Assembly (NCBI GenBank): GCA_964016885.1
Contig: OZ024754.1
Coordinates: forward strand, 44,702,001-44,766,000
Length of the DNA: 64,000 nt
Direction of reading: 5' to 3'
Origin: Eledone cirrhosa
Taxonomy: Eukaryota
Shown here: piece after piece, positions 1,838 to 64,000 of the stretch
How the letters are laid out: every line of letters starts with the position of its first letter
How positions within the stretch are numbered: position 1 is the first letter of the stretch
Translations under genes and position numbers: made by a program
Notes under the pieces: generated by a model
What the model was told of the DNA's origin: nothing
The model's input: the letters and a program-made list of their open reading frames with translations, nothing else
Databases searched by the model: none

Positions 1838-2188
1838 TATCATCATCATTTTACGTCCGCTTTTCCCTGCTTGCAAGGGAGGGACGGGTCTTATTCAGCA
1901 CAGCATCTCTCCACTTGTCACGGTCCTTCGTCATCTCCACCGTGAGCTTCAATGATCTGAGGTCTGTTCTCACCACCTCTGCCCATGTTTTTCGTGGTCT
2001 ACCTCTACCACGTCTTCCTTCAACTGGTATTTCCTGGCACTTCTTCACCCATCGGTCATCCTCCATGCGCATCACATGTCCATACCACCTCAGTCTCTTC
2101 TCTCGCACACTACATTCTATCCCTCTCAGACACAGTTTCTCATGCTGGGTCGTTCATGCACATTGACATTGCACATCCAACGGAGCAT
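1838..2188 (-). mobile_element. 3' fragment of a second RTE-like LINE
   Basis: [32 protein letters not shown], ending in ggacgtaaaa(tga)n. Confidence 0.85.
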
Positions 2189-5089: not shown

Positions 5090-5384
5090 CAAATGTGAAG
5101 GTATGTGGCTGAGTATCGGTTTCGCAATTGTGAGGTTGGGCGTTCTATTCCTGGAACGGGTGATGTGTTATGTCCTTGAGCAAGACACTTTATTTCACGT
5201 TGCTCCTTCTGCCTGGAGTTGTGGCCAGTAGATAGTATTAGCAATTGGATAGACTAATGGAAACATTGTTTCCTCGGTCAAGGAAAACAGGTGCAAAATG
5301 ATGGTATATGTGCATGTGTGTGTGGTTAAGTATGTATGTGTGTGTGTATGTGTGTTACTTTAAATAATTCTAAAAAAAAATAAA

Positions 5385-5407
5385 TCATTTTTTCTTCTCT
5401 TTCACAG
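5385..5407 (+). other. Splice acceptor of a 5'-UTR intron of the ASL-like gene
   Basis: Strong polypyrimidine tract tcatttttttcttctctttcacag ending at 5407, about 190 nt before the ATG. Confidence 0.6.
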
Positions 5408-5596
5408 GTTGATAACTTCAAAGAACACTGACAACTTTCATCCTGTTATTGTAATTGTCTAATTTTGTTTGTTTGTTTTATTTTCTGTATCTACGTGGTT
5501 TTTATTATCATTGTTACAGCATCAGATTGTCTTGAAAACAAGTCACCATACTTGTTTCCTTATTGTGTTCCTCCTCATTCAATTATTTGAGTCATC

Positions 5597-7234
5597 ATGC
5601 AGAGTCTTTACCGTTCCTTCATGAAATCATTTATTATGATCATCTTCACCGTCACCTTACTGCTGCTCATTTTTGTTCTGGGTCCAATGAGTGCTTTCTA
5701 TAGCAAGACAAGAGTTTCAACGCAGACATCTGCCATTAAGAAGACACCCCGATCTAATGTTACCAACAGTACCAGGTTCAAACAGAATTCTACTAAAAGC
5801 TTCCGAGAAATATTACATTTGACCGTGAGAGATACTACCACTCATCCGTCGGTGATAAACGGTTCCAAATTCCATGCAGCACATCTTATAACAACTCCAA
5901 AAGACAATCTACAGAACTATGGCATTGCACAAATTGTTGATTACAATCTCTTCAAAGAGGATATTGAATGCAGTAAGGCATATGCCAAAAGTCTGACGCG
6001 GGTTGGTCTGCTCACAAAGAAAGAATGCCATAATATCTTGGATGGGCTTGAAATGATTGGAATGGAATGGGAAAACGGAACATTTGACCTAAAGCCAGAT
6101 GATAAAGATGTCCATGCTGCCAATGAACGGCGCCTTGCTGAGTTGATTGGTTCTGCAGCAAGTAAGTTAAATGCTGGTTGGGATCGCAATGACCAGTTAG
6201 CAACAAGCCTGAGACTATGGCAAAAAAATGCCATTGATGTTCACAAGAATGATCTTATTGCACTGTTGGGAGTTATCACCGAGCGTGCTGAGAAGGAACT
6301 TGGAGTACTTATGGCTGGCTACACCGTCATGCAGCAAGCTCGACCAATTCGATGGAGTCATTGGCTGCTTAGCTTTGGCTGGAAAATCAAGAGAGATATT
6401 GAAAGACTCATGGATCTACTTTCAAGAGTTGACTTGCTCCCACTTGGAAGTGGGGCTCTAGCAGGAAACCCTTTCGGAGTTGACAGAATGTTTCTAGCCA
6501 AAGAACTCGGTTTTGCTGATATCATTGAAAACAGCATCGATGCTGTTAATGACCAAGATATCATCTTTGAATATGTTGCATGGGCATCAATTATGGCAGC
6601 TCATTTTCACAATTTGGCCGACGATCTTATTTTATACAGTACGAAAGATTTTGGCTTTGTGGAACTTTCCAATCCTCTTCACAATGCCAGTACCCCTTCT
6701 AATGAGAATGCACGAAGCTTGGAAGAAATCCGTGGCAAAACTAATTATATCTTCGGTGAATACACCGAGATGTTGAGTGTCTTGAAAGAATTCTCAAACT
6801 TACACAACAATGATTTTCTGTCAAATGCAAAAGGCATGTTTGATATTTACAGAACAATTGTCAATGCTTTGCCAATAACCAGAACAATCCTTTCTTCTTT
6901 GAAAATAAACCCAGACAAAATGGAAGCATCCCTTAGTGAAGACATGTTATTACCAGACTTGGAATATTATATGGTACGGAAAGGGTTACCTGCAGACAAA
7001 GCCCATAGCCTTGTTGGTTTGTGTGTTGGGTTGTCACAGAAAAAAGGTGTAACGTTCTCAAAACTCTCCTTGGCTGAACTGAGATCAGTTAGCCCAGTTT
7101 TTGAGCTTGATGTGAAGTCAGTATGGAATTATAACAACAGTGTTGAGCAGTATTCAGTACCAGGAGGAACAAGTCATGCTAGTGTACAGCGCCAAATAGG
7201 TCAGTTGAAGAAATGGATGTCATTCCAAAGATAA
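5597..7234 (+). CDS. Argininosuccinate lyase-fold protein with N-terminal signal/anchor and degenerate active site (ASL-like probable pseudoenzyme), 545 aa, single coding exon
   Basis: Intact ORF collinear with animal ASL from about aa 115: SKAYAKSL, HAANERRL, RNDQ, PIRWSHWLLS, LPLGSGALAGNP, DLILYSTKDFGFV, YYMVRKG, VWNYNNSVEQY..GGT. Hydrophobic run FIMIIFTVTLLLLIFVL at aa 12-28. GYTHLQ is GYTVMQ and the GSSLMPQKKNP signature is absent. Gene symbol withheld because it is probably not the ASL orthologue. Confidence 0.9.
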   Translation: MQSLYRSFMKSFIMIIFTVTLLLLIFVLGPMSAFYSKTRVSTQTSAIKKTPRSNVTNSTRFKQNSTKSFREILHLTVRDTTTHPSVINGSKFHAAHLITTPKDNLQNYGIAQIVDYNLFKEDIECSKAYAKSLTRVGLLTKKECHNILDGLEMIGMEWENGTFDLKPDDKDVHAANERRLAELIGSAASKLNAGWDRNDQLATSLRLWQKNAIDVHKNDLIALLGVITERAEKELGVLMAGYTVMQQARPIRWSHWLLSFGWKIKRDIERLMDLLSRVDLLPLGSGALAGNPFGVDRMFLAKELGFADIIENSIDAVNDQDIIFEYVAWASIMAAHFHNLADDLILYSTKDFGFVELSNPLHNASTPSNENARSLEEIRGKTNYIFGEYTEMLSVLKEFSNLHNNDFLSNAKGMFDIYRTIVNALPITRTILSSLKINPDKMEASLSEDMLLPDLEYYMVRKGLPADKAHSLVGLCVGLSQKKGVTFSKLSLAELRSVSPVFELDVKSVWNYNNSVEQYSVPGGTSHASVQRQIGQLKKWMSFQR

Positions 7235-7716
7235 TCTATAGATCAATAAGTGATCATTGAAATCCTATTGATTGTGTTTGTGTATGTTTTATTTTTATCA
7301 CAGCCACTGACACCTCTCACCGTTTGCTAATAGAAAACTTTGATTTCATCAGAATCTCTCAAGATTTAATTATTTTATTGTATCTATTGTCATAGATTGA
7401 CTTTTGTTGTTGATGTTTTTGGGAAAATATAATTGTGTGTATGTGTGTGTGTATAGGTATGTATACATGTATGTATATATATATATATACACAGGTATAT
7501 AGATATAGGTATATGTACATATATATATATATATATATATTTACATATATATATATATAGGTACATGTACATATTTCTTTCCATATACTGTACCGATTGC
7601 ATTGTTATTTCTGTTTACCTTTTATATATATATATACACATACACATACATATATTTATAACATATACCCACACTAGCTCGCAATAACTACATAACTACA
7701 AACAATCATCAAGAAC

Positions 7717-8280
7717 CTTCACTGCTGTCCTCACAGGAAGTGAACCCAGCCCCATGTGAGTCCATGTTATTCACTGCTGTCCTCACAGGAAGTAACCCCT
7801 GCTTCATGTGATTTCCATGTTATTCACTGCTGTCCTTACAGGAAGTCAACCCAGCCCCATATGAGTCCATGTTATTCAGTGCTGTCCTCACAGGAAGTCG
7901 TCCCAGCCACATGTGATTTCATATTCTTCACTGCTGTCCTCACAGGAAGTCATCCCAGCCCCATGTGAGTCCATGTTATTCACTGCTGCCCTGACAGGAA
8001 GTCATCCCAGCCCCATGTGAGTCCATGTTATTCGCTGCTGCCTTGACAGGAAGTCATCCCAGCCCCATGTAAGTCCATGTTATTCACTGCTGTCCTCACA
8101 GGAAATCAACCCAACCTCATGTGATTTCCATGTTATTCACTGCTGTCCTCACAGGAAGTCATGCCAGCCACATGTGATTTCCATGTTATTCACTGCTGTC
8201 CTCACAGGAAGTCATGCCAGCCACATGTGATTTCCATGTTATTCATTGCTGTCCTCACAGGAAGTCATTCCAGGCCCATG
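7717..8280. repeat. 52-bp minisatellite, about 11 copies
   Basis: Unit ttattcactgctgtcctcacaggaagtcatcccagccccatgtgagtccatg. Confidence 0.9.
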
Positions 8281-8956
8281 GCACCCAGACACGAATCCTG
8301 TCATGGGAAACTCTTATCAAACCATATTTAAGATACACTTTCAAAACCTAGTTTGAATTGTTTCATAAGACCATGTTGATGTCACTGTTGTTGATGTACT
8401 TATTATTGATGTTGCTGTTATTGTTAATGTTGTTGCAGATGTTATTGCTGTTGATGTTGTAGTTTTGCAGTTATTATTGATGTTGCCGATGTTGTTGTTG
8501 ATGATGTTTGATGTAAAACAGTCTACTTACTATAAAATTTGTCTTCTTATCGTACAATTAGATCAGATCAGTTCTCTTTAACTTTTAACATCCTCTAAGG
8601 ATTTCACAGAAAACATCTTAAAACTAGGTTTGTTAATTCAAATGTTTATAGTGTCTTTACGAGAGGACAGATCATTGTGAAAAGATGCAGTATTAGAGTA
8701 AAGACTTCAATAATGTGATGCAGTCGTTAGGCTGTTTAATATTTTTCATGTATGTCTTGCTAAGGTGGTTTCATGTGGTACAGGGCATTAAGAGATAAAG
8801 AAACTTTCCAAAATTGCATGCTAGCAGAACACTTGTAAATATTACAGTGCTCCCCCTGTCCTTCTTATTTGTCTACAGGGGTGATTTATAAAGAATGTCA
8901 TAGAAAGTGGGTAGATAGGTAGAGAAAATGTTTAAATGTCTTCTCTATGCAGATGT

Positions 8957-9172
8957 TTAACCCTTTAGCATTTACATTACTCTATATTTACTATTGTATT
9001 TTCACAGTAAAGGCTTTACCCCACATAATATCAAATCTATGAGATTTTGATATTATTTATTTTGAGAACAATACCATAACATCAGGATGAGTGGCCAGTT
9101 ACGGCTGGTTTTAACAGAGAGAGGTGAGAGAATTCTGGCCAGATATGACCGGTTTAAATGCTAAAAGGTTAA
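8957..9172. mobile_element. piggyBac-type MITE (TTAA TSD, CCC/GG ends)
   Basis: TTAA|CCCTTTAGCATTTA ... TAAATGCTAAAAGG|TTAA, 208 bp core. Partial relatives at 29619-31372, 31385-31446, 31968-32145, 44605-44809. Confidence 0.8.
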
Positions 9173-9853
9173 CACTACTGAGTAGGATGGCTTTGGCTCA
9201 ACATAAATTATCACCTAGGGTCATATTTTTTCTTCTTTTTAAATCTGAGTTCATCTGCTTTATAAAACTTTGATTATCTTAGTCAAGCATTACTCGATGA
9301 ATCTACAAAACTTACAAAACCTCTCTACCCCAGATAACACAGAAGAGGTTTACTTTTGTTGCTAATAATCTCCCTTGGAAAAGACATAAAATTCACATTG
9401 TCTTCCCATTTCTTCTGCTGCTTAAATCTATTATATTCTTTTCTTTGGAAAAGAATGAATGTTGCAAATTCTCATTTCTTTTCTTAGAAAAAAAACAAAC
9501 AAACATTCCCAACTATCATGATTTTGTAAGAAAATATGATAAACTTGTATAATTACACACGTCTTACTTTGGAGATGAAATATTTTTCTTGTGGTTTTTA
9601 ATGTGGTTTGATGTGGTCCAGGATGTTAAGAGATAAAAAAAGATTAAAGAAAGACAACATTCTACTTGCTTTATCAAGTGGACAAATGTTTCACCATCCC
9701 TGTTGTTGCCATCAACACTACCACCAACACCACCACCAACGCCATCAAAAACTCCACTGCTACCATCACCACCACAGTCACTGTCACAGATACCATCACT
9801 ACTGTGGCTACTACTACATCAAGTTAGACACTAGAATACCACTGTTGACATAT

Positions 9854-29045: not shown

Positions 29046-29251
29046 GTTTGAAATAGAAAAGAAATTGCGACAGGCAAAGAAGAAAGATCAAAAGGGGAAA
29101 AAGAAGTCTTCCTCCGACTCAGGTTCACGACAAGTTGCCACACCGAGTCAGCGGAGCCAAGAACGACGTAAAAACATTGAGGACAAGAGGGACAGCAAGA
29201 TGTCTGCCTTTAAGAATCTGAAGGCTAGGAGAGAAGAGAAGAAAACTAAAG
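29046..29251 (+). CDS. RTF1: Rtf1 coding exon 5
   Basis: ttag|G (R)FEIEKKLRQAKKK...LKARREEKKTK G|gtttgt. Confidence 0.92.
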
Positions 29252-29367
29252 GTTTGTATAGGGCTTTATACTCTCCCTCTCCTCACTCTTTCTCTCCCTC
29301 TCACTCACTTCCATCAGTCTATCATTAGACTGCAGTGTCATTCTCTTACTCTACTCTTTCTCTTCAG

Positions 29368-29599
29368 AGATTGCAATCAAAGAGCAACAGAAAAAGAAGC
29401 TGGCCGTGAACCACATCTACTCAGATGATGATGATGACGACGATGATGATGATGATGATGATGCTGCAGATAGTACTAATAAAGAAGAGAGCAGTCGGAA
29501 GAGTGAGCGAGAAGAAAAGCACAAGAAAGCAGACTCTTCATCATCATCAGACTCCAGCGATGATCGCTCATCAGCTTCCTCAGACTCCGACTCAAATGG
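29368..29599 (+). CDS. RTF1: Rtf1 coding exon 6
   Basis: ttcag| EIAIKEQQKKKLAVNHIYSDDDD...SDSN GG|gtaggt. Acidic, Ser-rich. Confidence 0.88.
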
Positions 29600-29618
29600 G
29601 TAGGTGTCCTCGCATCGC

Positions 29619-31240
29619 TATTGTATTGTCACAGTAAAGGCTTTACCACACATAATATCTCACATAACATTTACATTACTCTATATATACTATTGTATTT
29701 TCACAGTAAAGGCTTTACCTCACATAATATCTCACATAACATTTACATTACTCTATATATACTATTGTATTTTCACAGTAAAGGCTTTACCTCACATAAT
29801 ATCTCACATAACATTTACATTACTCTATATATACTATTGTATTTTCACAGTAAAGGCTTTACCTCACATAATATCTCACATAACATTTACATTACTCTAT
29901 ATATACTATTGTATTTTCACAGTAAAGGCTTTACCTCACATAATATTTCACATAACATTTACATTACTCTATATATACTATTGTATTTTCACAGTAAAGG
30001 CTTTACCACACATAATATCTCCCATAACATTTACATTACTCTATATATACTATTGTATTTTCACAGTAAAGGCTTTACCTCACATAATATTTCACATAAC
30101 ATTTACATTACTCTATATATACTATTGTATTTTCACAGTAAAGGCTTTACCACACATAATATCTCACATAACATTTACATTACTCTATATATACTATTGT
30201 ATTTTCACAGTAAAGGCTTTACCACACATAATATCTCCCATAACATTTACATTACTCTATATATACTATTGTATTTTCACAGTAAAGGCTTTACCTCACA
30301 TAATATCTCACATAACATTTACATTACTCTATATATACTATTGTATTTTCACAGTAACGGCTTTACCTCACATAATATCTCACATAACATTTACATTACT
30401 CTATATATACTATTGTATTTTCACAGTAAAGGCTTTACCACACATAATATCTCCCATAACATTTACATTACTCTATATATACTATTGTATTTTCACGGTA
30501 AAGGCTTTACCTCACATAATATCTCACATAACATTTACATTACTCTATATATACTATTGTATTTTCACAGTAAAGGCTTTACCACACATAATATCTCCCA
30601 TAACATTTACATTACTCTATATATACTATTGTATTTTCACAGTAAAGGCTTTACCTCACATAATATCTCACATAACATTTACATTACTCTATATATACTA
30701 TTGTATTTTCACAGTAACGGCTTTACCTCACATAATATCTCACATAACATTTACATTACTCTATATATACTATTGTATTTTCACAGTAAAGGCTTTACCA
30801 CACATAATATCTCCCATAACATTTACATTACTCTATATATACTATTGTATTTTCACGGTAAAGGCTTTACCTCACATAATATCTCACATAACATTTACAT
30901 TACTCTATATATACTATTGTATTTTCACAGTAAAGGCTTTACCTCACATAATATCTCCATAACATTTACATTACTCTATATATACTATTGTATTTTCACG
31001 GTAAAGGCTTTACCTCACATAATATCTCACATAACATTTACATTACTCTATATATACTATTGTATTTTCACAGTAAAGGCTTTACCTCACATAATATCTC
31101 ACATAACATTTACATTACTCTATATATACTATTGTATTTTCACAGTAAAGGCTTTACCTCACATAATATCTCACATAACATTTACATTACTCTATATATA
31201 CTATTGTATTTTCACGGTAAAGGCTTTACCTCACATAATA
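29619..31240. repeat. 72-bp minisatellite, about 22.5 copies, derived from the piggyBac-type MITE
   Basis: Unit tattgtattttcacagtaaaggctttacctcacataatatctcacataacatttacattactctatatatac. The array runs into the MITE right half ending ctaaagggttaa at 31372. Confidence 0.93.
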
Positions 31241-32206
31241 TTGAATCTACGAGTTTTTGATATTATTTATTTTGAGAACAATACCTTAATATCAGTATGA
31301 ATGGCCAGTTAAAGCCAGTTTGAACAGAAAGAGGTGAGAGAATTCTAGACAGTTTAAATGCTAAAGGGTTAACATAAGTATGAGCAGCCGATTTGAATAG
31401 AGGGAATTCTGGTCAGATACGGCTAGTCTAAATGCTAAAGGGTTAAAGTTGCTTGTTTTTACAATTTTATTCTTTTATTTAAATATAACTTCCTAGAACC
31501 CCCCCCCAAATAGAAAGAAAGAAAGTCCTGTCTTTATTGGCCCTTCAGATACATAACCATCTGTATTTCCTTCCCTTTCAGCTCCTCAGTTCACATATTC
31601 ACATGCATGAGATAACAATAGGAATCTCATTAAACTATAGTTTCAAATAATTTATTCAACTAATTCTCTATCTGCCCACAAGCTGTTCTACACAATTACA
31701 ATGTTCAACAGATTGACTGAAGAAGGTCAATTTATTGCAAAATTGAATCACAGAAAGAACGAAAAGAAAACTAAAATAGGAAGTTATCATAGCAAGAATT
31801 TAATTTTTTTTTTATTGTTAGTTGAAAATTAAAACAGTAATTACATTTAAATTACTTTTACAATTACTAATGCTACTAGTAAAATGTTAATAATGTGTGG
31901 CCTAGTGGTAAGGGTGTTGGACTTGTGATCATAATGTTGTGGGTTTGATTCCTGGGCTGTGTTTTGTGGTAAAGGCTTTATCTTACATAATTACCTCACA
32001 TAATATCGAATCTATGAGGTTTTGATATTTATTTTGAGAACAATACCTTTAACATCAGTATGAGTGGCCAGTTACAGCTGGTTTGAACAGAAAGAGGTGA
32101 GATAATTCTGACCAGATATGGCCAGTTTAAATACTAAAGGGTTAACACTCTTTTTCCTGTTGTAGCATAAAAATCAACTAATTCTTATCTGGTTCCTCTA
32201 TTGCAG

Positions 32207-32293
32207 TAGTCCAAAATCCCGCAAAAAAAGCACAGTTTATGCCACCAGAGATGATTTATCTAAGATACGACTTTCACGCAACAAAATGGAAAG
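32207..32293 (+). CDS. RTF1: Rtf1 coding exon 7 (start of Plus3 domain)
   Basis: ttgcag| SPKSRKKSTVYATRDDLSKIRLSRNKME R|gtgagt. Confidence 0.92.
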
Positions 32294-32927
32294 GTGAGTA
32301 TATTTTCATCACGTTACTATTTGAATTCTCGTTTCACCAGAGTTAACTTCCAGTATGTCATTCATCATTGTTACCATTTAACATCTGTTTTCCCTACTAG
32401 AAAGGGTTGGGCAGGTCTTCATGGACAGAGTCAGTACTGAAGCAGGTCTTACTGACCTCCCAGACAGGTCAGCACTTCCCATGTTCTACTGAGTACATAT
32501 TACTGTGGCACCAGCACTAGAGGTTGTCAAGTCATCGATACAACTGAGCGGTGTAGATCACCAACACTAGAGTGGCTGGGGGTGAGTTTAGTTGGTGATG
32601 TCCTCTTCTACAAATGTGTAACTGTATGTCAATATAAAGAACATTCTCAGGATTATTATCATCATCATCATCATTATTATTATTAGGGCGGTGGATTGGC
32701 AGTATTGGTAGAGCGTTGGACACCTACTTCGCGGCATAGAGTTATGGCCCTTTACATTTTGAGTTTAAATTCCACTGAAGTTAGCTTTGTCTTTCATTCT
32801 TAAGGGAGTCGATAAAATAGAGTACCAGTAATGCGCTGGGGTCGATTTAACCGATCCCCCCCCCTCCCCTTCAAATTGCTGGACTTGTGCCAAAAATAGA
32901 AACAATTGTTATGTTATTTTATTTTAG

Positions 32928-33018
32928 GTGGTGTCACATGCCCTTTTTCAAAAACACTGTCATGGGTTGCTTTGTACGGATTGGTATTGGAAACCATGAA
33001 GGCCGAGCTATATACAGA
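32928..33018 (+). CDS. RTF1: Rtf1 coding exon 8 (Plus3)
   Basis: [30 protein letters not shown] |gtgagt, characteristic Plus3 sequence. Confidence 0.95.
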
Positions 33019-33734
33019 GTGAGTAGAATACATCTCATCTTTTATTTTCAACTTTTCTCTGACAGACTCCCTTCCCCAACACTGTTTCTCTGCTCCTCAC
33101 CTCGACAGCAGGTCACTGCAGTCCTGCTCCTCTGACACCAGGTTTCTCTCAGTCCTCATGCTCCTTGCTGTAACATCAGGTGCCTCCGTAGTCCTTGTGC
33201 TGTGCTCCTTGCTCCTCACTCTGTACCAGGTCCCTTCCCCCCTCGTGCAGCCCTTCTGTTCTTCTGACACCCTGCTCCTCCCACTCCTTATGTTTCTACC
33301 TTTTGCTCCCCTATCATCTGTTGATGAACCCTGCTCCTACATTCAATAATGTCCTCACAATCACAGACTTTGTTTAGCCCTTAGTCAATGATTATGATCA
33401 AGCAGGCTTCTGGTCAGAATCTATGGCTATCTGATGTAGTTTAACCCCAGTTCCAGCCTTAGTCTGGTAGACACCCTGATCACCTGATAGAGCTCCAGCT
33501 CCTTACCCTACTTTCTTTACAACTGCTATTGTATGACACAGCTCCCCACACAGCTCCTTCCTCACCCCAGCTCATGTTGTATGATGCAGCACCACCCCTA
33601 CGCACACAACCACTGTTGTATGACATAGCCTCCCTACTCCCCATCATCTGTTATATAACCCTGCTCCCTCCCCCAGTCCTACAACCCCTGTTAGAGGTCA
33701 CACCCTCATCAATAACATTCTCCCTTCCTTTCAG

Positions 33735-33817
33735 GTGGCTGAAATAATTGATGTTGTGGAAACATTGAAAATCTATCAACTTGGCTCAGCTCGAACAAAT
33801 AAAGGTGTCCGACTAAG
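33735..33817 (+). CDS. RTF1: Rtf1 coding exon 9 (Plus3)
   Basis: ttcag| [28 protein letters not shown]|gtaaat. Confidence 0.95.
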
Positions 33818-34305
33818 GTAAATAGTTTGGAAAAGAGTTGTTGTGGTTGTGGTGGTACCGGTGGTTGTTGTGGTTGTGGTGGTACCGGTGGTTGTTGTGG
33901 TTATTGTCGTTGTGGTGGTACCGGTGGTTGTGGTTATTGTGGTGGTACCGGTGGTTGTTGTGGTTATTGTGATAGTGGTATCGTTATTGTGGTGCTAGAT
34001 CTAACTGTATATTATACTATTCTATGAACTCTCACTGTGTAGTACACTACTGTATGAGGTCTAACTATATAGTATACTATTCTATGAGTTCTAACTATAT
34101 GATATTCAATTCTATGACCTCTCTGTGCAATATACTATTCTACAAGGTCTAACTATATAGTATATTATTCTACAAGGTCTAACTATGCAATATACAAGGT
34201 CTAACTATATAGTATACTATTCTACAAGGTCTAATTATATGATATACTATTCTACAAGGTCTAACTATGTAGTATACTATTGTGTATTGGTTTTGTCTTG
34301 AGCAG

Positions 34306-34501
34306 GCATGGAGGTGCTGAACGAGTGTACAGGCTAGAGTTTGTATCAAATCAAGATTTCACAGAATCAGAATTCTTCAAATGGAAGGAAGCAATGGCTC
34401 ATGCAGGCATGACATTACCAACCCGAGAAGAAGTAGAGAAGAAAATCTCAGACATAAACAACGCCTTCAACTACAAATTCAAAGATAACGACATTGAAGA
34501 G
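34306..34501 (+). CDS. RTF1: Rtf1 coding exon 10 (Plus3 end)
   Basis: [30 protein letters not shown]...DIEE |gtatgg. Confidence 0.95.
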
Positions 34502-34741
34502 GTATGGTGCTCTTTTATTTTCTCTGGATTGGCAAAATGTTGTGGGGGTAGGGTAGAAGGTGTGGTGGGGTTGTGGTGGAAGGTGTTGTATGTCTTTGGG
34601 TTGTGGTACGTGTGGTGTGTCTTGGGGTTTGTGGTGGAAGGTGTGGTGTGTCTTGGAGGTATGGTGAGTCCTGAAGGTGTGGTTTATGAAGGGTAGAAAG
34701 TCTAATAATTGTTATATATTGTCTTATTTTTTAAATTTCAG

Positions 34742-34819
34742 ATCGTAGCCGAGAAACAGAAATTTAAGAAAAACCCCCATAATTATGCCATGAGGAAAAC
34801 CCTTTTAATGAAACAGAGG
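34742..34819 (+). CDS. RTF1: Rtf1 coding exon 11
   Basis: IVAEKQKFKKNPHNYAMRKTLLMKQR |gtatgt. Confidence 0.93.
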
Positions 34820-34914
34820 GTATGTTATTCTTTGTGTGCATTTTGTTACATACAGAAGTACTGGAGAGAGGAGTTTGATCTGATGACATGAGAATATTTA
34901 GAGCTGTTAGGTTC

Positions 34915-35430
34915 TAGTATAGCTGTAATATAGCTATAGTATAGCTGTAGTATAGCTATAGAATATCTACAGTATAGCTATAGTATAGCTGTAGAATATC
35001 TACAGTATAGCTATAGTATAGCTGTAGAATATCTATAGTATAGCTGTAGAATATCTATAGTATAGCTGTAGAATATCTATAGTATAGCTGTAGAATATCT
35101 ATAGTATAGCTGTAGAATATCTATAGTCTAGCTGTAGTATAGCTATAGTATAGCTGTAGTATAGCTGTAGAATATCTATAGTATAGCTGTAGAATATCTA
35201 TAGTATAGCTGTAGAATATCTATAGTATAGCTGTAGAATATCTATAGTCTAGCTGTAGTATAGCTATAGTATAGCTGTAGTATAGCTGTAGAATATCTAT
35301 AGTATAGCTGTAGAATATCTATAGTATAGCTGTAGAATATCTATAGTCTAGCTGTAGTATAGCTGTAGAATATCTACAGTATAGCTATAGTATACCTGTA
35401 GTATAGCTATAGTATATCTTATAGTATAGC
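34915..35430. repeat. 11/22-bp minisatellite
   Basis: Unit tatagctgtagaatatctatag. A related 30-bp array lies at about 34030-34280. Confidence 0.9.
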
Positions 35431-35645
35431 TACTGGGTTCTGTTGTATAGCTAGAGTATTTTATATGCCTCGACAAAGTTAAAATTCCTTCGGGCTGGGG
35501 GTAGGGGTAATTGACAATCTTGGTGGTGGTGGCGATGTATAGCTTGTCTGTCAAATGACTAGGGAACATCCAGAGATCCCTAAATTTGGAAATGGTATAA
35601 TCTCTGTCTAGTTGACAAGTGTAACTACATTTTGAGATGAAGTGG

Positions 35646-35677
<32 letters not shown>

Positions 35678-35778
35678 ATACGTGGTGAGGATGGGGAAAG
35701 CAGTCAGAGTAATGATGATGATGATGGTACTTATACTGAAAGTGGTGATGGTTGTTGTACTTGTGATGGTGTTGGAGG

Positions 35779-36263
35779 TACAGGTGAAATTCCGTTATAA
35801 CAAAGTTTTCAGTATAACAAAATTCTTCCACTCCCTGAGGTAACACTTGATGTGTTTCGGTCGATCTCGTTATAAAGAATTTTTTTTTATATGAAGGTAC
35901 ATAGCTTAGTGGTTAGAGCATTGGCCTTGGAATTAAAAGGTTGTGAGTTCAATTCTCAGACCGGGTGATGTGTTGTTTCCTTGAGCAAGACACTTTATTT
36001 CACATTGCTCCAGTTTACTCAGCTGTAGAAATGAGATGATAGGGACTGGGATCCCTATCATTCCACTGTAAAGTGGTCGTGTAGGTGCCACAGAAAAAAG
36101 CACCCAGCACTCACTGTAAATGAGGTTGATGTTAGGAAGGGCATCCAGCTGTAGAAATCAAGCCAGAATCAGTTCCCGTCCCACCCTTGAAAGCAGGGAA
36201 AAGTGGACGTAAAATGATGATGATGATTCTTCGTGAATTTCATTATAACAGAATTTCACTGTA
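35779..36263. mobile_element. TA-flanked Tc1/pogo-like MITE interrupted by a SINE
   Basis: Termini tacaggtgaaattccgttataac and attataacagaatttcactgta are imperfect inverted repeats. Related sequence at about 54775-54916. Confidence 0.6.
35895..36227 (+). mobile_element. tRNA-derived SINE with LINE-like (GAT)n 3' tail, nested in a TA-flanked MITE
   Basis: Family-A head, tail aggaagggcatccagctgtagaaa..ggacgtaaaatgatgatgat. Near-identical inverted copy at about 55084-55400. Confidence 0.85.
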
Positions 36264-36295
36264 GTTATGCTGTTGTTGTTGTTGTTGTTATCTAG

Positions 36296-36417
36296 GACCA
36301 GGCAGAAGTGGAAGGACTGAAAGACAAGGCTAAAGATCTGAATAAACAAATTGAAGAATTGGAAGAGAGGGCCACAGAGCTTGACCGGCGTCGTACTAGT
36401 AACATAAACTCAATTAG
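36296..36417 (+). CDS. RTF1: Rtf1 coding exon 12
   Basis: DQAEVEGLKDKAKDLNKQIEELEERATELDRRRTSNINSI S|gttggt. Confidence 0.93.
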
Positions 36418-36697
36418 GTTGGTCAATGTGATTTTATAATCTGTTTACACCCCCCCCCCCCCCCCCCCCCCGTCTCCACACACACACACCCTCTCCTCCG
36501 CTTACCCCCCACCGCATATTCCATCCCTCCCACCCACTCCCCCAATCCCTGCATATCCCCCATATACCCCCCTCACCCCCCCCCCCCCCAACACACACTC
36601 CATCGTCCCACTTATTCCACCCATCTCCCCCCCCCCCATATTTCACCCTCCCCTATTATTCGGGTCCTGAGAGTATATCTTCCATTTCTCTCTTCAG

Positions 36698-36833
36698 TTA
36701 CATTAACCAACGTAATAGAGAGCGAAATATGATAGAAGCTGAGAAGGCTGCCATAGTTGAGGGAGAGGCTGCACGTAAGGCTGAAGCTGACCCCTTCACA
36801 CGTCGAGCTTGTCGGCCCAGTTTAGTAACAAAA
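36698..36833 (+). CDS. RTF1: Rtf1 coding exon 13
   Basis: (S)YINQRNRERN...DPFTRRACRPSLVTK |gtaagt. Confidence 0.94.
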
Positions 36834-37212
36834 GTAAGTCTTTCTTTCTCTCTTTTCTTTCATTTCTATCTCTCTCTCTCTCTTTTCCCCCCTTTCTCTC
36901 TCTCTCTCTCTCTCTTTTCCCCCCTTTCTCTCTCTCTCTCTCTCATACAATTAACCTGTCTATGTAGAGGTTTAGTTTTCCAAACCTGGAGAGGTATGGA
37001 CTCCATCAGGCTTAAAATGCCTCCAAAACTCTGTATGTCAATAAGGCACCCCTACCACTCTATCAGGAGTTACTGGACCATACATACATACTTACATACA
37101 TACATACATACATACTTACATACATACATACATACATACTTACTTTATCACTGAATTCTTTATATGGTTTTAACTTCCAACTTTCATGGAATTCAATTCC
37201 TTTCTCTTGCAG

Positions 37213-37290
37213 GTTCGTGACCCTGAAATATCATCAATAGTAAAAGCCAAACTAGCAGAAGCTACAGCAGCTGAAGATAGGAAAAAACGA
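37213..37290 (+). CDS. RTF1: Rtf1 coding exon 14
   Basis: ttgcag| VRDPEISSIVKAKLAEATAAEDRKKR |gtgagt, phase 0-0. Confidence 0.82.
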
Positions 37291-37411
37291 GTGAGTGGTT
37301 ACTTATGTGGTTTTACTTGATACATTGTTATGGTTAGTTAGGCTCAGGTGAGCTTTGATCCAGCAAATATAATGATTAGAGACACAGGTAGGATTTTTAC
37401 AGTTAAGAAGT

Positions 37412-37845
37412 TTGCGTGGCCTAGTGGAAAGTGTGTTGAACTAACAATCATAATGTTGTGGGGTTTGATTACTGGACTGGGTTGTGTGTTGTGTGGAGTC
37501 TAGTTGGCCTAGTGGTAAGGTTACTTGACTTATGATCATAATGTTGTGGGGTTTGATTCCTGGACTGGGTTGTGTGTTGTGTGGAGTCTAGTGTGGCCTA
37601 GTGGTAAGGTTACTTGACTTATGATCATAATGTTGTGGGGTTTGATTCCTGGACTGGGTTGTGTGTTGTGTGGAGTCTAGTGTGGCCTAGTGGTAAGGTT
37701 ACTTGGCTTATGATCATAATGTTGTGGGGTTTGATTCCTGGACTGGGTTGTGTGTTGTGTGGAGTCTAGTGTGGCCTAGTGGTAAGGTTACTTGGCTTAT
37801 GATCATAATGTTGTGGGGTTTGATTCCTGGACTGGGTTGTGTTTG
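37412..37845 (+). repeat. 89-bp tandem repeat of a SINE head, 5 copies
   Basis: Each unit has tggcctagtgg (A box) and ggtttgattcc (B-box-like). Confidence 0.85.
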
Positions 37846-38623
37846 TGAGTGAAACACTTGATTTCATGTTGCTCCTCATTTCATAACAACTTGGATTTTG
37901 GTCTGATAGAACTGTGTGATGCCTTGGCCATTTGTCTTCTACCTCAACGGCTTGTGAGTGAAATTGTTAGGTGGGATGTGTATGGAAGACTGTTGCATGT
38001 GTGTATGTTTGTGTGTGTCTGCACGTGTGTGTTTGTGCTTGCATATTTCTTCAGGCTGACATTAAGTGATGTTTTAGCTGTGACCAATCAATATTACGAG
38101 ATACAAGCTAACAGCACGAGGCGCTTTGTCTGTTACTCTATCGATTCTGGCATTCATAACCCCTTTTTACCAACATGAGTGTCATGAAGTCATGAAGAGC
38201 GACATGTAGCCTGTTGAGATCTTCATGGCCATACAGTTGTTCCCCGGTAGTCATGAGGGTTACATAAAACTGCAAATATTGGAACAGGGTCCATAAAAAT
38301 GCCTATAAATGTTAAGACTATAACATAAAATATAATAAAAAAAGAGGGAGCGTCTTATGCGAAGGAGCATCTAATAGGCTGGCAAATACGGTATATTGTT
38401 ATTAATAATTTAGCATTAAATAGCGTGAAAAAATATATATTGCTATGAAAAAAGCCATAAAAATCGCAGAAGATATTTATGATTCCGTAAATATGCTGTG
38501 GTTGATTAAATAAAACACCAGTAATACATTGGGGGTTTATTTAATCGACTTTCCCCTTCTCTTCAAATTGTTGGCCTTGAGTCTATAGTAGAAACAGTTC
38601 TAATCATATCATCTCTTCTATAG

Positions 38624-38683
38624 CTGGAAGCAGAAGCCAATGGTGGAGAAGCAACAGTAGAAGCAACAGTGGAACCAAAGCTG
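38624..38683 (+). CDS. RTF1: Rtf1 coding exon 15 (60 nt, possibly cassette)
   Basis: ctcttctatag| LEAEANGGEATVEATVEPKL |gtgagt, phase 0-0. Splice sites are good but the sequence is not recognisably conserved. Confidence 0.65.
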
Positions 38684-39275
38684 GTGAGTGTTCAACCTTC
38701 GTCTACCTGTCCTACCTTCGTCTACCTGTCCTTCGTCATCACTAAGTCACTGTCCTAATCAGAACCACTGATTTGTCAGGTTGACTGTAACATCATCTCA
38801 CATACACTCCCACTCTCTATTGAGTGTGCTGTGTTTTATGGCACCAGTACTAGGGATGTCTTCATGTCCTTGACTCAACTGATGAGTCTTCTATATTCTT
38901 TGTTTGGCAAGTTTCCTGTGGCTAGATGCCATTCCTATGACTAACCATCTTACAAGGTGTATTAGAGAGGTTGTTGTGTCCTCGACACACCAGATAAGTC
39001 CTCTCAACCTTTTTTGGCAGGGTTACTATAGGTTGATACCCTTCATATCACCAACCACCTTTTAGGGTGAACTGGTGCTAATATATTTCATACTGAAAAT
39101 ATCAAGAACAATAACTTGAAATTATGCTGTGGGGATAAAAACATTGGTCCTCTGAGTTATTACAAGCTCAACACCTGAGCCTCAGTGTTACTAGTTCAAC
39201 ACCTTAACCTCACAGCTACTGAGCCTCAGTGTTGTTCTGTCTGTGAGTTAACAAGAGTAAATGATTGTTTTGTAG

Positions 39276-39399
39276 ATTGCTCCAATTGTGCCAGTAGAGA
39301 AACCAGAAGTGAAGAATGTTCCAGAACGGAGAGATTCCGAAGACTTATATGCTGTACATGATTTCGATATCAAAATAGATTTAGAAGTGCCCATGTCAG
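39276..39399 (+). CDS. RTF1: Rtf1 coding exon 16
   Basis: IAPIVPVEK...SEDLYAVHDFDIKIDLEVPMS G|gtgatt, matching the conserved DLFKVHDFDVKIDL motif. Confidence 0.92.
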
Positions 39400-41101
39400 G
39401 TGATTATTTTTTATATTGTTTTGACATTTCGTTATTTCACCCTTTCTTTACCATATTTATAATTAAAGAAGTTGCATATAATTTTTCTATAATTTTGCAA
39501 ATAATCAAGAATTTGGAGGGATTTAGTAATATAATTAATTTTCTCATTATTAAATTGATGTTTGGAACATATAGTTTTTTTTACATAAAATTATGATCGA
39601 AGGTTTATATGAACACTAGTTAAATATGAACACTTTAAAATAAATATTTTAGAACCAGGTTACTGTGCTCTTGCAGAAGTCGACTTTACCTTTCATCCTT
39701 TTGAGGTTAATAAATAAAGTACCGGTCGAATACTGGGGTTGATTCTTCCTCTATATATTTTTCTCACTTCCCCTCTATCACTGTCTCTCTTTTACTTTCT
39801 CTGGAAGAAATTAGACCTGGAGAGAGAAGAGTTGCGCTAAGTTGAAAATGCTGAAACATGCTGTGATAGTACGGCGCCTCTACGACTCCATAAGGAGTTA
39901 TGGGCCTTTGGTTTAAAATGCTGGAGATATGCTGTCAGGACGTTGCCCCTACGAATCAATCATGAGTTATGGGCCTTCTACCTTTCTTTAGAACCAGAGG
40001 TGGTTTGGTATTGGTATCAAAAGGGTTTAACTTATTACTTGCCGTTGGGCTGATGGTAATATCGATAGCGATGGTTTGTTGTTGTCTAGTCCCAGGTCAG
40101 TTCAATCCAGAAAATCCATCATCACAGTTAGGGCCATGTTCTGATCTGGAGAGTGTCAGGAAGGCGTCCCTTTGTGAATGTGCACAGTTAATGTGTTGGG
40201 CTCATGATTGATATGTTGTGGATTGTATCACAAGAATATTGAGTTCTTGAGCAAGGTACACCATTTCTTCAAGTTTATAGTCCAGTCCACTCAGCTTTCA
40301 GAATGAGTACTAGTAACAGCTGGGAGCTGACCTTGTGAGGGATGACATCCTGTCTAGTCGAGTGGAGGGGATGACTTCTCTGTGTATTTGGGAGTCTTGT
40401 ATTCTCAGTTGTTTTCTGGAGGTCGGATTATATCGGCGCTGCCCCAGCACGGCCGTAGTCTTATATGACAGAAACCATTTAAAAAAAAGAAAGAAAAAGT
40501 GATCGAAGTGCGTTAAGACAAAAGTTTAACACAGTATTATCTCCCCTTTACACTTAATACCAGTTGAGACTCACTGTATTACCTCCCTTGTCATTTATTG
40601 CCGCCAGGGTGACTACAAGAAAAAGAGAGAGATGTTTCTGAGTGGCAGATACTAACGGAGGTTACTACTGATCTAAACTGACCTCAATAATGCCATGAGG
40701 TTAACTTTGCCTTTCATCCTTACGGGGTCGATCAAATAAAGTACCAGTAATACACTGGAATAATTGCTGGCCTTGTGCCAAAAGTAGAAACAATTATTAC
40801 TATTATCAATTGGTAGAGGGTTGGATGCCTTGCTTTGCAGCATAGAGTTACGGTCTGAGTTCAAATCCCCGCCGAGGTTAACTTTGCCTTTCATCCTTAC
40901 GGGGGTTGATAAAATAAAGTTCCAGTAATACACTGAGGTAATTGCTGGCCTTGTGTCTAAAGTAGAAACAATTATTGTCGATAAAATAAAGTATCAGTAA
41001 TAAACTGGAGTAATTGTTTGCCTTGTGCCAAAAGTAAAAACATTATTTTTAGTTATGTATATGATGTGGAGTTAATTTCTCTTCAATTCCATCAATTTCA
41101 G

Positions 41102-41208
41102 GATCGTCCATCGTGGCTTACAACCGAACAGCACAGCCAGTAAAAGAAGTGACACCACGAAGGTCATTAAATTTAGAAGACTACAAGAAGCGGCGAGGTT
41201 TAATATAA
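41102..41208 (+). CDS. RTF1: Rtf1 coding exon 17 (terminal)
   Basis: [38 protein letters not shown], the conserved RTF1 C-terminus. Summed CDS is 2109 nt = 702 aa plus stop. Confidence 0.95.
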
Positions 41209-57467: not shown

Positions 57468-57731
57468 TCTTCTTCTTCTTCTTCTTCTTCTTCTTCACCG
57501 CCCACTTATTCCTGAGAGGGTCGTGGGGGCCAGAGTCCTCAAACACCCCTTCCAGCAAGTCCTGTCAGAAGCAACCCTCTCCAACTGATCCTGCTGGATC
57601 CCCAAGCGTGACCATCCAAGCTCATGTATGTTATCCAACCATCTTACTCGGGGTCTACCCCAGGGTCTACCCTTGGGTCTCCTGGCGGTTGCTTTTGCCA
57701 GAGACATTCTACTTTGTCTTGTGTCCCGCAA
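57468..57731 (-). mobile_element. 3' fragment of a third LINE with (GAA)n tail
   Basis: RPKGRPWGRPRVRWLDNI..GWSRLGI C-terminal LINE motif followed by (gaa)9. Confidence 0.7.
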
Positions 57732-57968
57732 ATAAATAATGATGCCAACATTCCAAACAATTCTTTATATATATATAAAGGAGCGATCGACTTTCGTCAA
57801 ATCGGACCGAGGAAACAGTGTTTCCATTGGTCTTTCCAGTTGCTAATACTATCTATTGGTCACAACTCCAGGTAGAAGGAGCAACGTGAAATAAAGTGTC
57901 TTGCTCAAGGACATAACGCATTTCCCGGTCCGGGAATCGAACTCACAACCTCACGATTGTGAATCCAT

Positions 57969-61350: not shown

Positions 61351-61989
61351 ATGAGACATTCAAATTGTCAACCAAGCATGTACTGTCACACAGCTCCAAC
61401 GTCATCGTCTGATACCAAGTCGAAGGTTTTACAAATTGTTTTAGATAACAAACAATATTTAAACGAAGGGAAGTGGTACTATGTCGAACTAGACATGGAC
61501 AAGGCGCACCATAAATTATTAAATACTAAAAATGGAACATTTCTCTTAAGAAACAGTCTGAATTCGAACAGTAGGTTTGCTCTGTCAGTGAAAACTTTCA
61601 ACAAAGTTGTCAGTATGAAAATCGTTTCTCGCTATAATTTCTTCCATATAGATTGTGTAAAAGAAGCGGAAAATAGGATACCTCTTTTCCAAACTGTTGT
61701 TGAACTTGTACAGTTTTATTCCAGGCGGCCCTCAAACCAAAACCAACATGGGCAAGTGTTACAACATCGTTGGTGTTGGTTTGATAAATCTGCAAAGAAA
61801 CATATTCCGATAGTGCTAGGAGTTCCATTGAAACACTCAATACCGACATTGAAACATCTCTCTAGGCTTGTGGTCAATCAAACTGTAGAGGAAAATGAAG
61901 TAGAGATCCCACTTCATTATTTAGTAAAAAAACTACCCCTACCAACCTACCTTAAAGACTATATCAGTTCCTATCCATTTGTTATTTAA
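61351..61989 (+). CDS. Suppressor of cytokine signalling (SOCS2/CISH-like), SH2 + SOCS box, 212 aa, single coding exon
   Basis: SH2: KWYY...AHHKLLNTKNGTFLLRNS...FALSVKT...F.TVVELVQFY. SOCS box: PTLKHLSRLVVNQ...LPLPTYLKDYISSYPF. Confidence 0.9.
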   Translation: MRHSNCQPSMYCHTAPTSSSDTKSKVLQIVLDNKQYLNEGKWYYVELDMDKAHHKLLNTKNGTFLLRNSLNSNSRFALSVKTFNKVVSMKIVSRYNFFHIDCVKEAENRIPLFQTVVELVQFYSRRPSNQNQHGQVLQHRWCWFDKSAKKHIPIVLGVPLKHSIPTLKHLSRLVVNQTVEENEVEIPLHYLVKKLPLPTYLKDYISSYPFVI

Positions 61990-63175: not shown

Positions 63176-63848
63176 ATCATCATCATCATCATCATCGTTT
63201 AACGTCCATCTTCCACACTTGCATGGGTTTGGACGGGAATTTTCCCACTTGAGGCAAGATTGGTTGTCTTGCTCGTATAGGACTGTCTGGCGGGTTTTCT
63301 ACGGCTGGATGCCCTTCCCAACGCCAACCACATTTACAGTGTGAACTGGGAGGTTTTTACCGTGTTACCTACATGGCCACATTACAGCGTGGACTGTGTG
63401 TCTTTTTTTGTCGTGACACCTACATGACCTCATTTATTCCGGACTGGATGTTGTGGTACCAACATAACTTTACATTGAAAGGGGTGGTGTGGATGAGGTG
63501 GGGGTGGTGGAACGGGGGGGGGGGTATTTTTGTTAGAGGTGCCTACTGACTGTAGGTTTCGCTTTGTACTTAGGCAAGGCGGGTCTTCCATATTACTGTG
63601 TAGCGCCAAAGATCTCGGTCCAGTGACATTGTCTTGGAGAGGTGTAAGTGTGTGAGGTCGGAATTTATCAAGTCGTCCCAGGTTTTTCTGGGTCTGCCTA
63701 CTCCGTGGCTACCGTCTATTTTGATCGCCCTGCACTTTTTTATACAGCTGTCGTCTTTCATGCGCATCACGTGACCATACCAACATAGTCTTCTCTCGAG
63801 TAAACAACATCTGATCCCTCTTATTTCTAATTTCTCCCTTAGTTCATT
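63176..63848 (-). mobile_element. 3' fragment of the same RTE-like LINE family with complete 3' UTR and (GAT)n tail
   Basis: [52 protein letters not shown], nearly identical to 26480-26903. Continues to ggacgttaaac(gat)n. Confidence 0.9.
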
Positions 63849-64000
63849 TATATATATATATATATATGTGTAAATGAAGTAATTCCATCGGAAAAGTCCA
63901 GGAAAAAAGAGTGCTCTATGTAGGTAACAGAGCTTAATAGTTATGTAATAAACAACATAAGACAATTATTCCATTTACCAGTGGTTTCTTAAAAGCAAAA

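Follow-up and report, generated by a model that had tools for sequence, protein, structure and literature searches.

A coleoid argininosuccinate lyase paralogue with a predicted N-terminal signal anchor and an altered active site in octopods

Why does a protein with the fold of argininosuccinate lyase (ASL), a cytosolic enzyme, begin with a membrane helix? The question is raised by an open reading frame in the window (the whole stretch of 64,000 nucleotides of Eledone cirrhosa DNA that was analysed). A preliminary description of the locus had proposed a luminal, surface or secreted ASL-fold protein. From the comparisons below, membrane entry of the protein is well supported and the lumen is favoured for the ASL fold, while "secreted" became the weaker option, since an uncleaved anchor is favoured. 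We propose an anchored type II ASL-fold protein whose octopod form is non-catalytic, and we give this proposal as a whole a probability of about 0.6. Pfam identified Lyase_1 (E=3e-57) and ASL_C2 (E=7e-14) in the 545-aa protein (P0001). The features of the gene are as follows.

5389..5407 (+), candidate 3' splice acceptor of a 5' UTR intron (pyrimidine tract and CAG; sequence)
5597..7234 (+), single-exon open reading frame of an ASL paralogue with an N-terminal anchor (reading frame, Pfam, structure matches)
5597..5629 (+), N-terminal tail, aa 1-11, net charge +2, predicted to be cytosolic (sequence, alignment)
5630..5680 (+), hydrophobic helix, aa 12-28, predicted signal anchor (hydropathy, AlphaFold, alignment)
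5681..5701 (+), conserved juxtamembrane segment, aa 29-35 (alignment, cleavage-site rule)
5702..5866 (+), disordered S/T/K-rich stem, aa 36-90 (composition, sequons, AlphaFold)
5867..5932 (+), degenerate ASL N-terminal arm, aa 91-112 (alignment)
5933..7231 (+), ASL-fold core, aa 113-545 (structure match)
6179..6184 (+), conserved region 1, altered: R111 to W195, S112 to D196 (alignment)
6326..6328 (+), catalytic His160 replaced by Val244, codon GTC (alignment)
6671..6715 (+), remodelled signature loop, aa 359-373 (alignment)
6797..6832 (+), altered substrate-binding segment, aa 401-412: Y321 to H, K323 to N, Q326 to L, K329 to A (alignment)

Residue numbers for the conserved-region changes follow vertebrate ASL P0099. 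The ATG at 5597 is the first in frame, with an in-frame TGA 9 nt upstream and an A at position -3. Two candidate splice acceptors with pyrimidine tracts lie upstream of it (ending at 5407 and, weaker, at 5519), and none was found between the ATG and position 6000. Contigs from four sequencing runs (low depth, library type unrecorded) contained no splice joint within the gene, which has no bearing on its expression. One contig, of run X3, spans 5415-5880 gap-free, and none of these low-depth contigs bridged 5881-6006 or 7102-7430. No AATAAA or ATTAAA was found in 7235-9500. An assembly artefact was ruled out, since gene models of O. bimaculoides, O. sinensis, O. vulgaris, and Argonauta hians show this architecture as well. 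The anchored ASL paralogue at 5597-7234 is real and conserved. Two repeats flank the gene. A very high-copy SINE-like short repeat is at 5147-5280, just upstream of the candidate acceptors (summed contig depth about 1e5-1e6), and a minisatellite with units of roughly 57 bp, as judged by eye, lies downstream at about 7720-8270.

The helix at aa 12-28 had a best 19-residue Kyte-Doolittle mean of 2.79. By the same measure, 139 other ASLs had a mean of 1.27 (SD 0.19) and a maximum of 2.03, which belongs to an internal helix. The 17-residue hydrophobic helix of the preliminary description was borne out. N-terminal hydropathy was at most 0.95 in the 23 ASLs outside the clade described below that are shown with long or atypical N-termini (of 203 with at least 400 aa). 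The summed insertion energy of aa 11-29 was -4.2 kcal/mol and the best value elsewhere in the protein was +7.7, indicating one membrane-spanning segment and no second. AlphaFold2 with a 28-row alignment predicted one helix at aa 2-34, disorder at aa 33-112, and then the ASL fold (mean pLDDT 77), with high confidence in the core helices and low confidence in the active-site loops. The short basic tail is present but only mildly basic, with a net charge of +2. One detail needed correction here, in that the extension absent from ASL is about 90 aa rather than about 110 aa, since aa 91-112 align with the ASL N-terminal arm. This arm is decayed in the window protein and intact in decapodiform orthologues. 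A Pfam match of aa 8-80 to Fijivirus_P9-2 was dismissed, its 15.3 bits falling short of the cut-off of 27.

To find relatives, 8000 candidates were scored. The closest were from O. bimaculoides (92% identity, full length) and Argonauta hians (86%), followed by a Logan protein, P0004 (54%, full length). The remaining matches, among the best 120 of 3468, had at most 85% query coverage and 43-50% identity. The clade contains 15 sequences. Seven are from octopods (the window protein, O. bimaculoides, O. sinensis, two O. vulgaris models, one Logan protein, and Argonauta) and eight are in the P0004 cluster. One member of this cluster carries a species name, Sepia pharaonis ('argH', CAE1276449.1), and the rest were therefore taken as decapodiform. 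Both forms are labelled merely ASL or ASL-like in databases. Ordinary ASL without the helix is present separately in these animals (P0018, P0134, P0023). A search with aa 1-130 of P0004 returned only three clade clusters and six weak ASL-core matches (167 candidates). A 122-column profile of the N-terminal region, searched against 1.84 billion representatives, matched only the P0002 cluster and P0230, a 6310-aa repeat protein that lacks the ASL motif and was rejected as unrelated. The ESM Atlas yielded no usable match. Ordinary cephalopod ASLs (P0018, P0023, P0134, P0154) have a hydrophilic N-terminal extension of their own, 30-60 aa long, with a basic KRPR cluster that we take to resemble a nuclear localisation signal. 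In P0123 (O. vulgaris CAI9730668.1), the first 464 residues of the orthologue are fused to a repetitive tail, which is probably a gene-model artefact.

The helix was carried by 14 of the 15 clade members and by 0 of the 139 other ASLs, so the conservation in orthologues on which the preliminary description depended was found. The exception, P0126, is the Sepia pharaonis annotation. It is identical at 472/472 positions to the helix-bearing P0130 and P0132, which extend the same sequence through the helix, and it lacks the anchor because the annotation starts further downstream. A main product without the helix, by a start at Met31 or by splicing, would be cytosolic. Met31 (5687-5689) lies just past the helix and is conserved in all five aligned sequences, octopod and decapodiform, and the Sepia annotation does begin past the helix. 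Three in-frame ATGs precede Met31, though, the first with A at -3, whereas Met31 has C at -3, a weak context for initiation. Splicing in downstream of the helix was tested indirectly, and the region from the ATG to 6000 offered no acceptor. Since the helix is also more conserved than the core and P0130 and P0132 restore it in Sepia, we regard a helix-less main product as very improbable.

Conservation was highest at the extreme N-terminus. Residues 1-35 are identical among Octopus, Argonauta, and the window protein (35/35) and match decapodiform P0004 at 27/35. Within them, the tail (aa 1-11) is 11/11 identical with Octopus and Argonauta and 8/11 with P0004, and the helix is 17/17 identical among the octopods compared and 13/17 in P0004. 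Between the window protein and P0004, the 27/35 exceeds both the stem (15/51, Fisher p=2e-5) and the core (247/431, p=0.03). Cleaved signal peptides evolve fast. The pattern here is unlike that of a cleaved signal peptide, and an uncleaved signal anchor is favoured. By the (-3,-1) rule of thumb, the window protein offers a single cleavage site, in the juxtamembrane segment, and this site is followed by Pro at +1, so no unblocked site is present, while the decapodiform orthologues have two permissive sites (in P0004, after aa 36 and 38). Cleavage or shedding would release a soluble glycoprotein into haemolymph, mucus, or gland secretions, where it could serve in structure or binding as the secreted equivalent of delta-crystallin. 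A tail and helix at the extreme N-terminus, the sequons, the permissive sites of P0004, and a long disordered stem that could be cut are all compatible with it. We consider such a product improbable, given the 17-residue hydrophobic core, its conservation among octopods and coleoids, and the blocked site in the window protein.

The helix-bearing sequences formed one clade with support of 100/99 (97 in a 70-row, unfinished tree with long-branch joins), and this clade was nested inside animal ASL with support of 98. It was sister to the ordinary cephalopod ASL in two trees (support 91 and 83/86) and this relationship was not recovered in two free searches. In one of the latter analyses, a tree constrained to the sisterhood had a higher likelihood than the free search. 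We favour a duplication of cephalopod ASL on the cephalopod stem, as these trees suggest. A topology test rejected descent of the octopod copy solely from the ordinary ASL of octopods (p-AU 5.5e-5). The coding sequence is intron-free, a single reading frame colinear with ASL. The ordinary ASL model P0133 of O. vulgaris lacks a 36-aa block of P0134, as exon skipping would give. The single coding exon together with this missing block suggests retroposition, and the gene is probably an ASL retrocopy.

In a Foldseek search, the core matched duck delta2-crystallin (1hy1_B) with a target-normalised TM-score of 0.90, an rmsd of 2.7 A, and 44% identity. The window protein has the fold and domains of ASL, and it has neither the superfamily signature nor the catalytic His. 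The GSSxxPxKxN signature with the catalytic Ser is kept in the decapodiform orthologues and replaced in octopods, where the loop (aa 359-373) varies in length. Eight residues that we take to be the substrate-binding residues of ASL (S27, R111, S112, R236, K287, Y321, Q326, K329) are all changed in the window protein. The losses recorded for octopods cover seven of these, K287 being the one not listed, together with the catalytic His and the entire GSSxxPxKxN loop. The Val244 codon GTC contains no A, and A-to-I RNA editing therefore cannot restore the His. The PDB title of 1dcn reads 'inactive mutant H162N'. We also defined 144 columns that are at least 97% invariant in 199 ordinary ASLs. Of these positions, 136 are kept in all five decapodiforms aligned, 83 in all five octopods, and 86 in the window protein. 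The best reading of these alignments is that the octopod copy is a pseudoenzyme that has lost catalysis, and the decapodiform copy, with its full active site, is probably still a lyase.

The octopod pocket might instead have been rebuilt to bind or convert another small molecule in the lumen. D171, H173, R197, N198, T243, and E376 are retained, and six replacements (W195, D196, V244, Q320, H403, L408) are identical in the window protein, O. bimaculoides, and Argonauta; shared replacements are, however, expected at 93% identity, and the loop differs in length among octopods. Moreover, neither the His nor the signature Ser, which PMC5806193 gives as the catalytic groups of this superfamily, is left. 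We judge a rebuilt pocket to be decidedly unlikely.

The loss of active-site residues does not reflect decay of the gene. The core is more conserved between O. bimaculoides and Argonauta (404/433, 93%) than that of ordinary ASL (381/430, 89%; p=0.018), and a decaying pseudogene was ruled out because the octopod core is more conserved than the housekeeping enzyme. As far as sequence comparison can tell, the octopod product is now under tight constraint. The octopod stem branch carried 0.81 changes per column, against 0.03-0.08 on the tips. Since decapodiforms are anchored and have an intact active site, octopods have lost it, and the octopod stem is long, the anchor came first and catalysis was lost later, in a burst.

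On which side of the membrane does the fold lie? The S/T/K-rich stem and its four sequons, N54 (5756), N57 (5765), N64 (5786), and N88 (5858), are all present as first described. Between aa 30 and 105, there are 23 S/T and 12 K/R in 76 residues. Four stem sequons compare with 1.4 expected from 20,000 shuffles (p=0.02; p=0.004-0.09 per sequence). N54 and N64 are kept in 14/14 helix-bearing sequences, decapodiforms included, and 10 of the 16 identical stem columns fall in two 5-residue blocks around them. The chance of retaining two sequons was about 0.04, with an alignment that favours matches. A second correction concerns the sequon at N160, which is present but gives no evidence for targeting, as it also occurs in 15/199 ordinary ASLs. 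Among these are P0153, P0154, and P0037, which have no helix and fall with the ordinary ASLs of cephalopods in the tree. N363 does lie inside the remodelled catalytic loop, and the preliminary description had missed a further sequon at N513. The rebuilt loop contains a sequon in each of the five octopod sequences, and none of the 199 ordinary ASLs has one in the same columns; in Argonauta, whose loop is Asn-rich, it may be a chance occurrence.

A sequon has also been lost. Gly109 replaces the Asn of an active-site N-x-S sequon that is present in 191/199 ordinary ASLs, and this position is Gly in 10/10 clade members aligned. The Gly variant is also found in one animal and five bacterial ordinary ASLs, the bacterial ones having been chosen for similarity to this region. 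Horizontal transfer from such bacteria is unlikely, since identity is 50-55% to them and 60-61% to animal ASLs and the clade lies inside animals; a forced bacterial grouping was 24 log-likelihood units worse, though not rejected (p-AU 0.196). Cysteine counts were discarded as uninformative, with 2-3 in the clade and a mean of 4.0 in ordinary ASLs, 44% of which have three or fewer.

The charges of the N- and C-terminal flanks of the helix are +2/+2 in the window protein, +2/+1 in Argonauta, and +3/-1 in decapodiforms. The lumen is favoured by the conserved N54 and N64, the decapodiform flanks, the lost active-site sequon, and the sequon gained in the octopod loop. Loss of the active-site sequon would be expected if a glycan there blocked an enzyme newly placed in the lumen. 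Against this, the window protein has balanced flanks, the p-values for the sequons are modest, and Asn-to-Gly is one event. We regard a luminal or extracellular position of the ASL fold as quite likely on these grounds.

When a short tail precedes a long and strongly hydrophobic helix, insertion in the opposite orientation can occur. The N-terminus would then be outside and the fold in the cytosol, at the ER or another membrane. ASL has a structural role in the NOS complex, and a tethered decapodiform ASL might feed arginine to a local ASS/NOS complex, while the dead octopod copy might keep the ASL scaffolding or dampen ordinary ASL in mixed tetramers. The substrate and partners of ASL are cytosolic, the decapodiform active site is intact, and the balanced flanks of the window protein would fit. 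We know of no luminal source of argininosuccinate, and an active luminal ASL in decapodiforms is thus hard to explain. Nevertheless, the conserved stem sequons, the loss and gain of sequons at the active site and loop, and the decapodiform flanks speak against a cytosol-facing fold, and we consider this orientation, together with the roles just described, unlikely.

For the anchored type II protein with a luminal fold, we suggest the following course of events. A coleoid ASL duplicate, probably a retrocopy, would have acquired its N-terminal signal anchor before the octopod and decapodiform lineages diverged. SRP would recognise the helix, which would not be cleaved, and insertion would be of type II, with the tail in the cytosol. 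The disordered stem, bearing N-glycans, and the ASL fold would face the ER/Golgi lumen or be exposed on the surface of the cell. Decapodiforms retained the full active site and their protein would probably still be a lyase. On the octopod stem, a burst may have removed catalysis and substrate binding and brought a glycan site into the old catalytic loop, after which constraint returned. The octopod protein is predicted to be a membrane-tethered non-catalytic oligomer that serves as a scaffold or binding protein. The D2 tetramer of ASL has N-termini at both ends. As a speculation, stems of 55-75 residues could let four anchors reach one membrane or two facing ones. To our knowledge, no other member of the fumarase/aspartase superfamily is in the secretory pathway. 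We offer only tentatively, as a doubtful possibility, that this is such a member, with a working luminal or surface lyase in squid and cuttlefish and a glycan-plugged octopod tetramer that clusters or bridges membranes.

ASL and delta2-crystallin (1aos, 1k7w, 1hy1) share the fold, the Lyase_1 and ASL_C2 domains, and the animal-ASL descent of the window protein, which differs from them in about 90 additional N-terminal residues (helix and sequon-rich stem) and in the loss of the His, the signature loop, and the binding residues. The delta1-crystallin of birds (1hy0, 1i0a) is likewise an ASL duplicate reused non-catalytically, with metabolism left to another gene. This lens protein is inactive, soluble, and cytosolic, and the sequence of its active site is nearly intact, whereas the octopod protein has an anchor, glycosylation sites, wholesale loss of the active site, and an independent origin. 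Delta-crystallin is an abundant soluble lens protein, and the membrane helix argues against such an identity here. Type II Golgi and surface enzymes (glycosyltransferases, sulfotransferases, and ectoenzymes) have the same layout, with a short tail, one helix, a disordered glycosylated stem, and a globular C-terminal domain. However, the N-terminal profile search gave no sequence link to them, and the globular domain here is a cytosolic lyase fold. The decapodiform orthologue (P0004 cluster) has the same tail and helix and two stem sequons and forms one clade with the octopods. Unlike the octopod protein, it keeps the catalytic His, Ser, and Lys and the signature motif.

In the full-text literature on ASL in cephalopods or on membrane paralogues of ASL, mostly open papers, we found no account of this gene. 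The accessible part of PMC10211241 mentions ASL only as delta-crystallin. An ASL entry was not found in the supplements of PMC10142993, PMC6397165, and PMC9839350, nor in the accessible parts of those of PMC10138644 (argininosuccinate synthase instead), PMC9712504, PMC12240821 (fly asl/CEP152 only), and PMC12607849; none of these absences has evidential weight.

A gene novelty of coleoids is concealed under the label 'argininosuccinate lyase-like'. A pathway annotation that credits octopus with two functional ASL genes would be wrong, and the Sepia model is without its anchor. The gene provides a rare staged series that leads from a cytosolic enzyme through an anchored one with an intact site (cuttlefish) to the anchored pseudoenzyme of octopus and argonaut, which is more strongly constrained than the housekeeping ASL. 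A luminal fold would mean that a central metabolic protein of the cytosol has been carried across a membrane, and that there is either arginine chemistry in the lumen or some new structural function for the ASL tetramer. Should decapodiforms have a luminal or surface lyase, arginine/argininosuccinate chemistry outside the cytosol would have gone unrecognised; it might supply nitric oxide or octopine metabolism.

The window DNA is repeat-rich. A non-LTR retrotransposon frame at 24267-26736 (+) contains a reverse transcriptase and a PHD finger and is interrupted close to its 3' end. Similar non-LTR elements are represented by shorter 3' fragments at 1854-2153 (-), 57498-57764 (-), and 63573-63965 (-). 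A multi-exon gene at 27616-41200 (+) has RTF1-like exon translations (Paf1 complex), the name being presumed from motifs. At 61351-61989 (+), a single exon encodes a 212-aa SOCS/CIS-like protein with an SH2 domain and a SOCS box.
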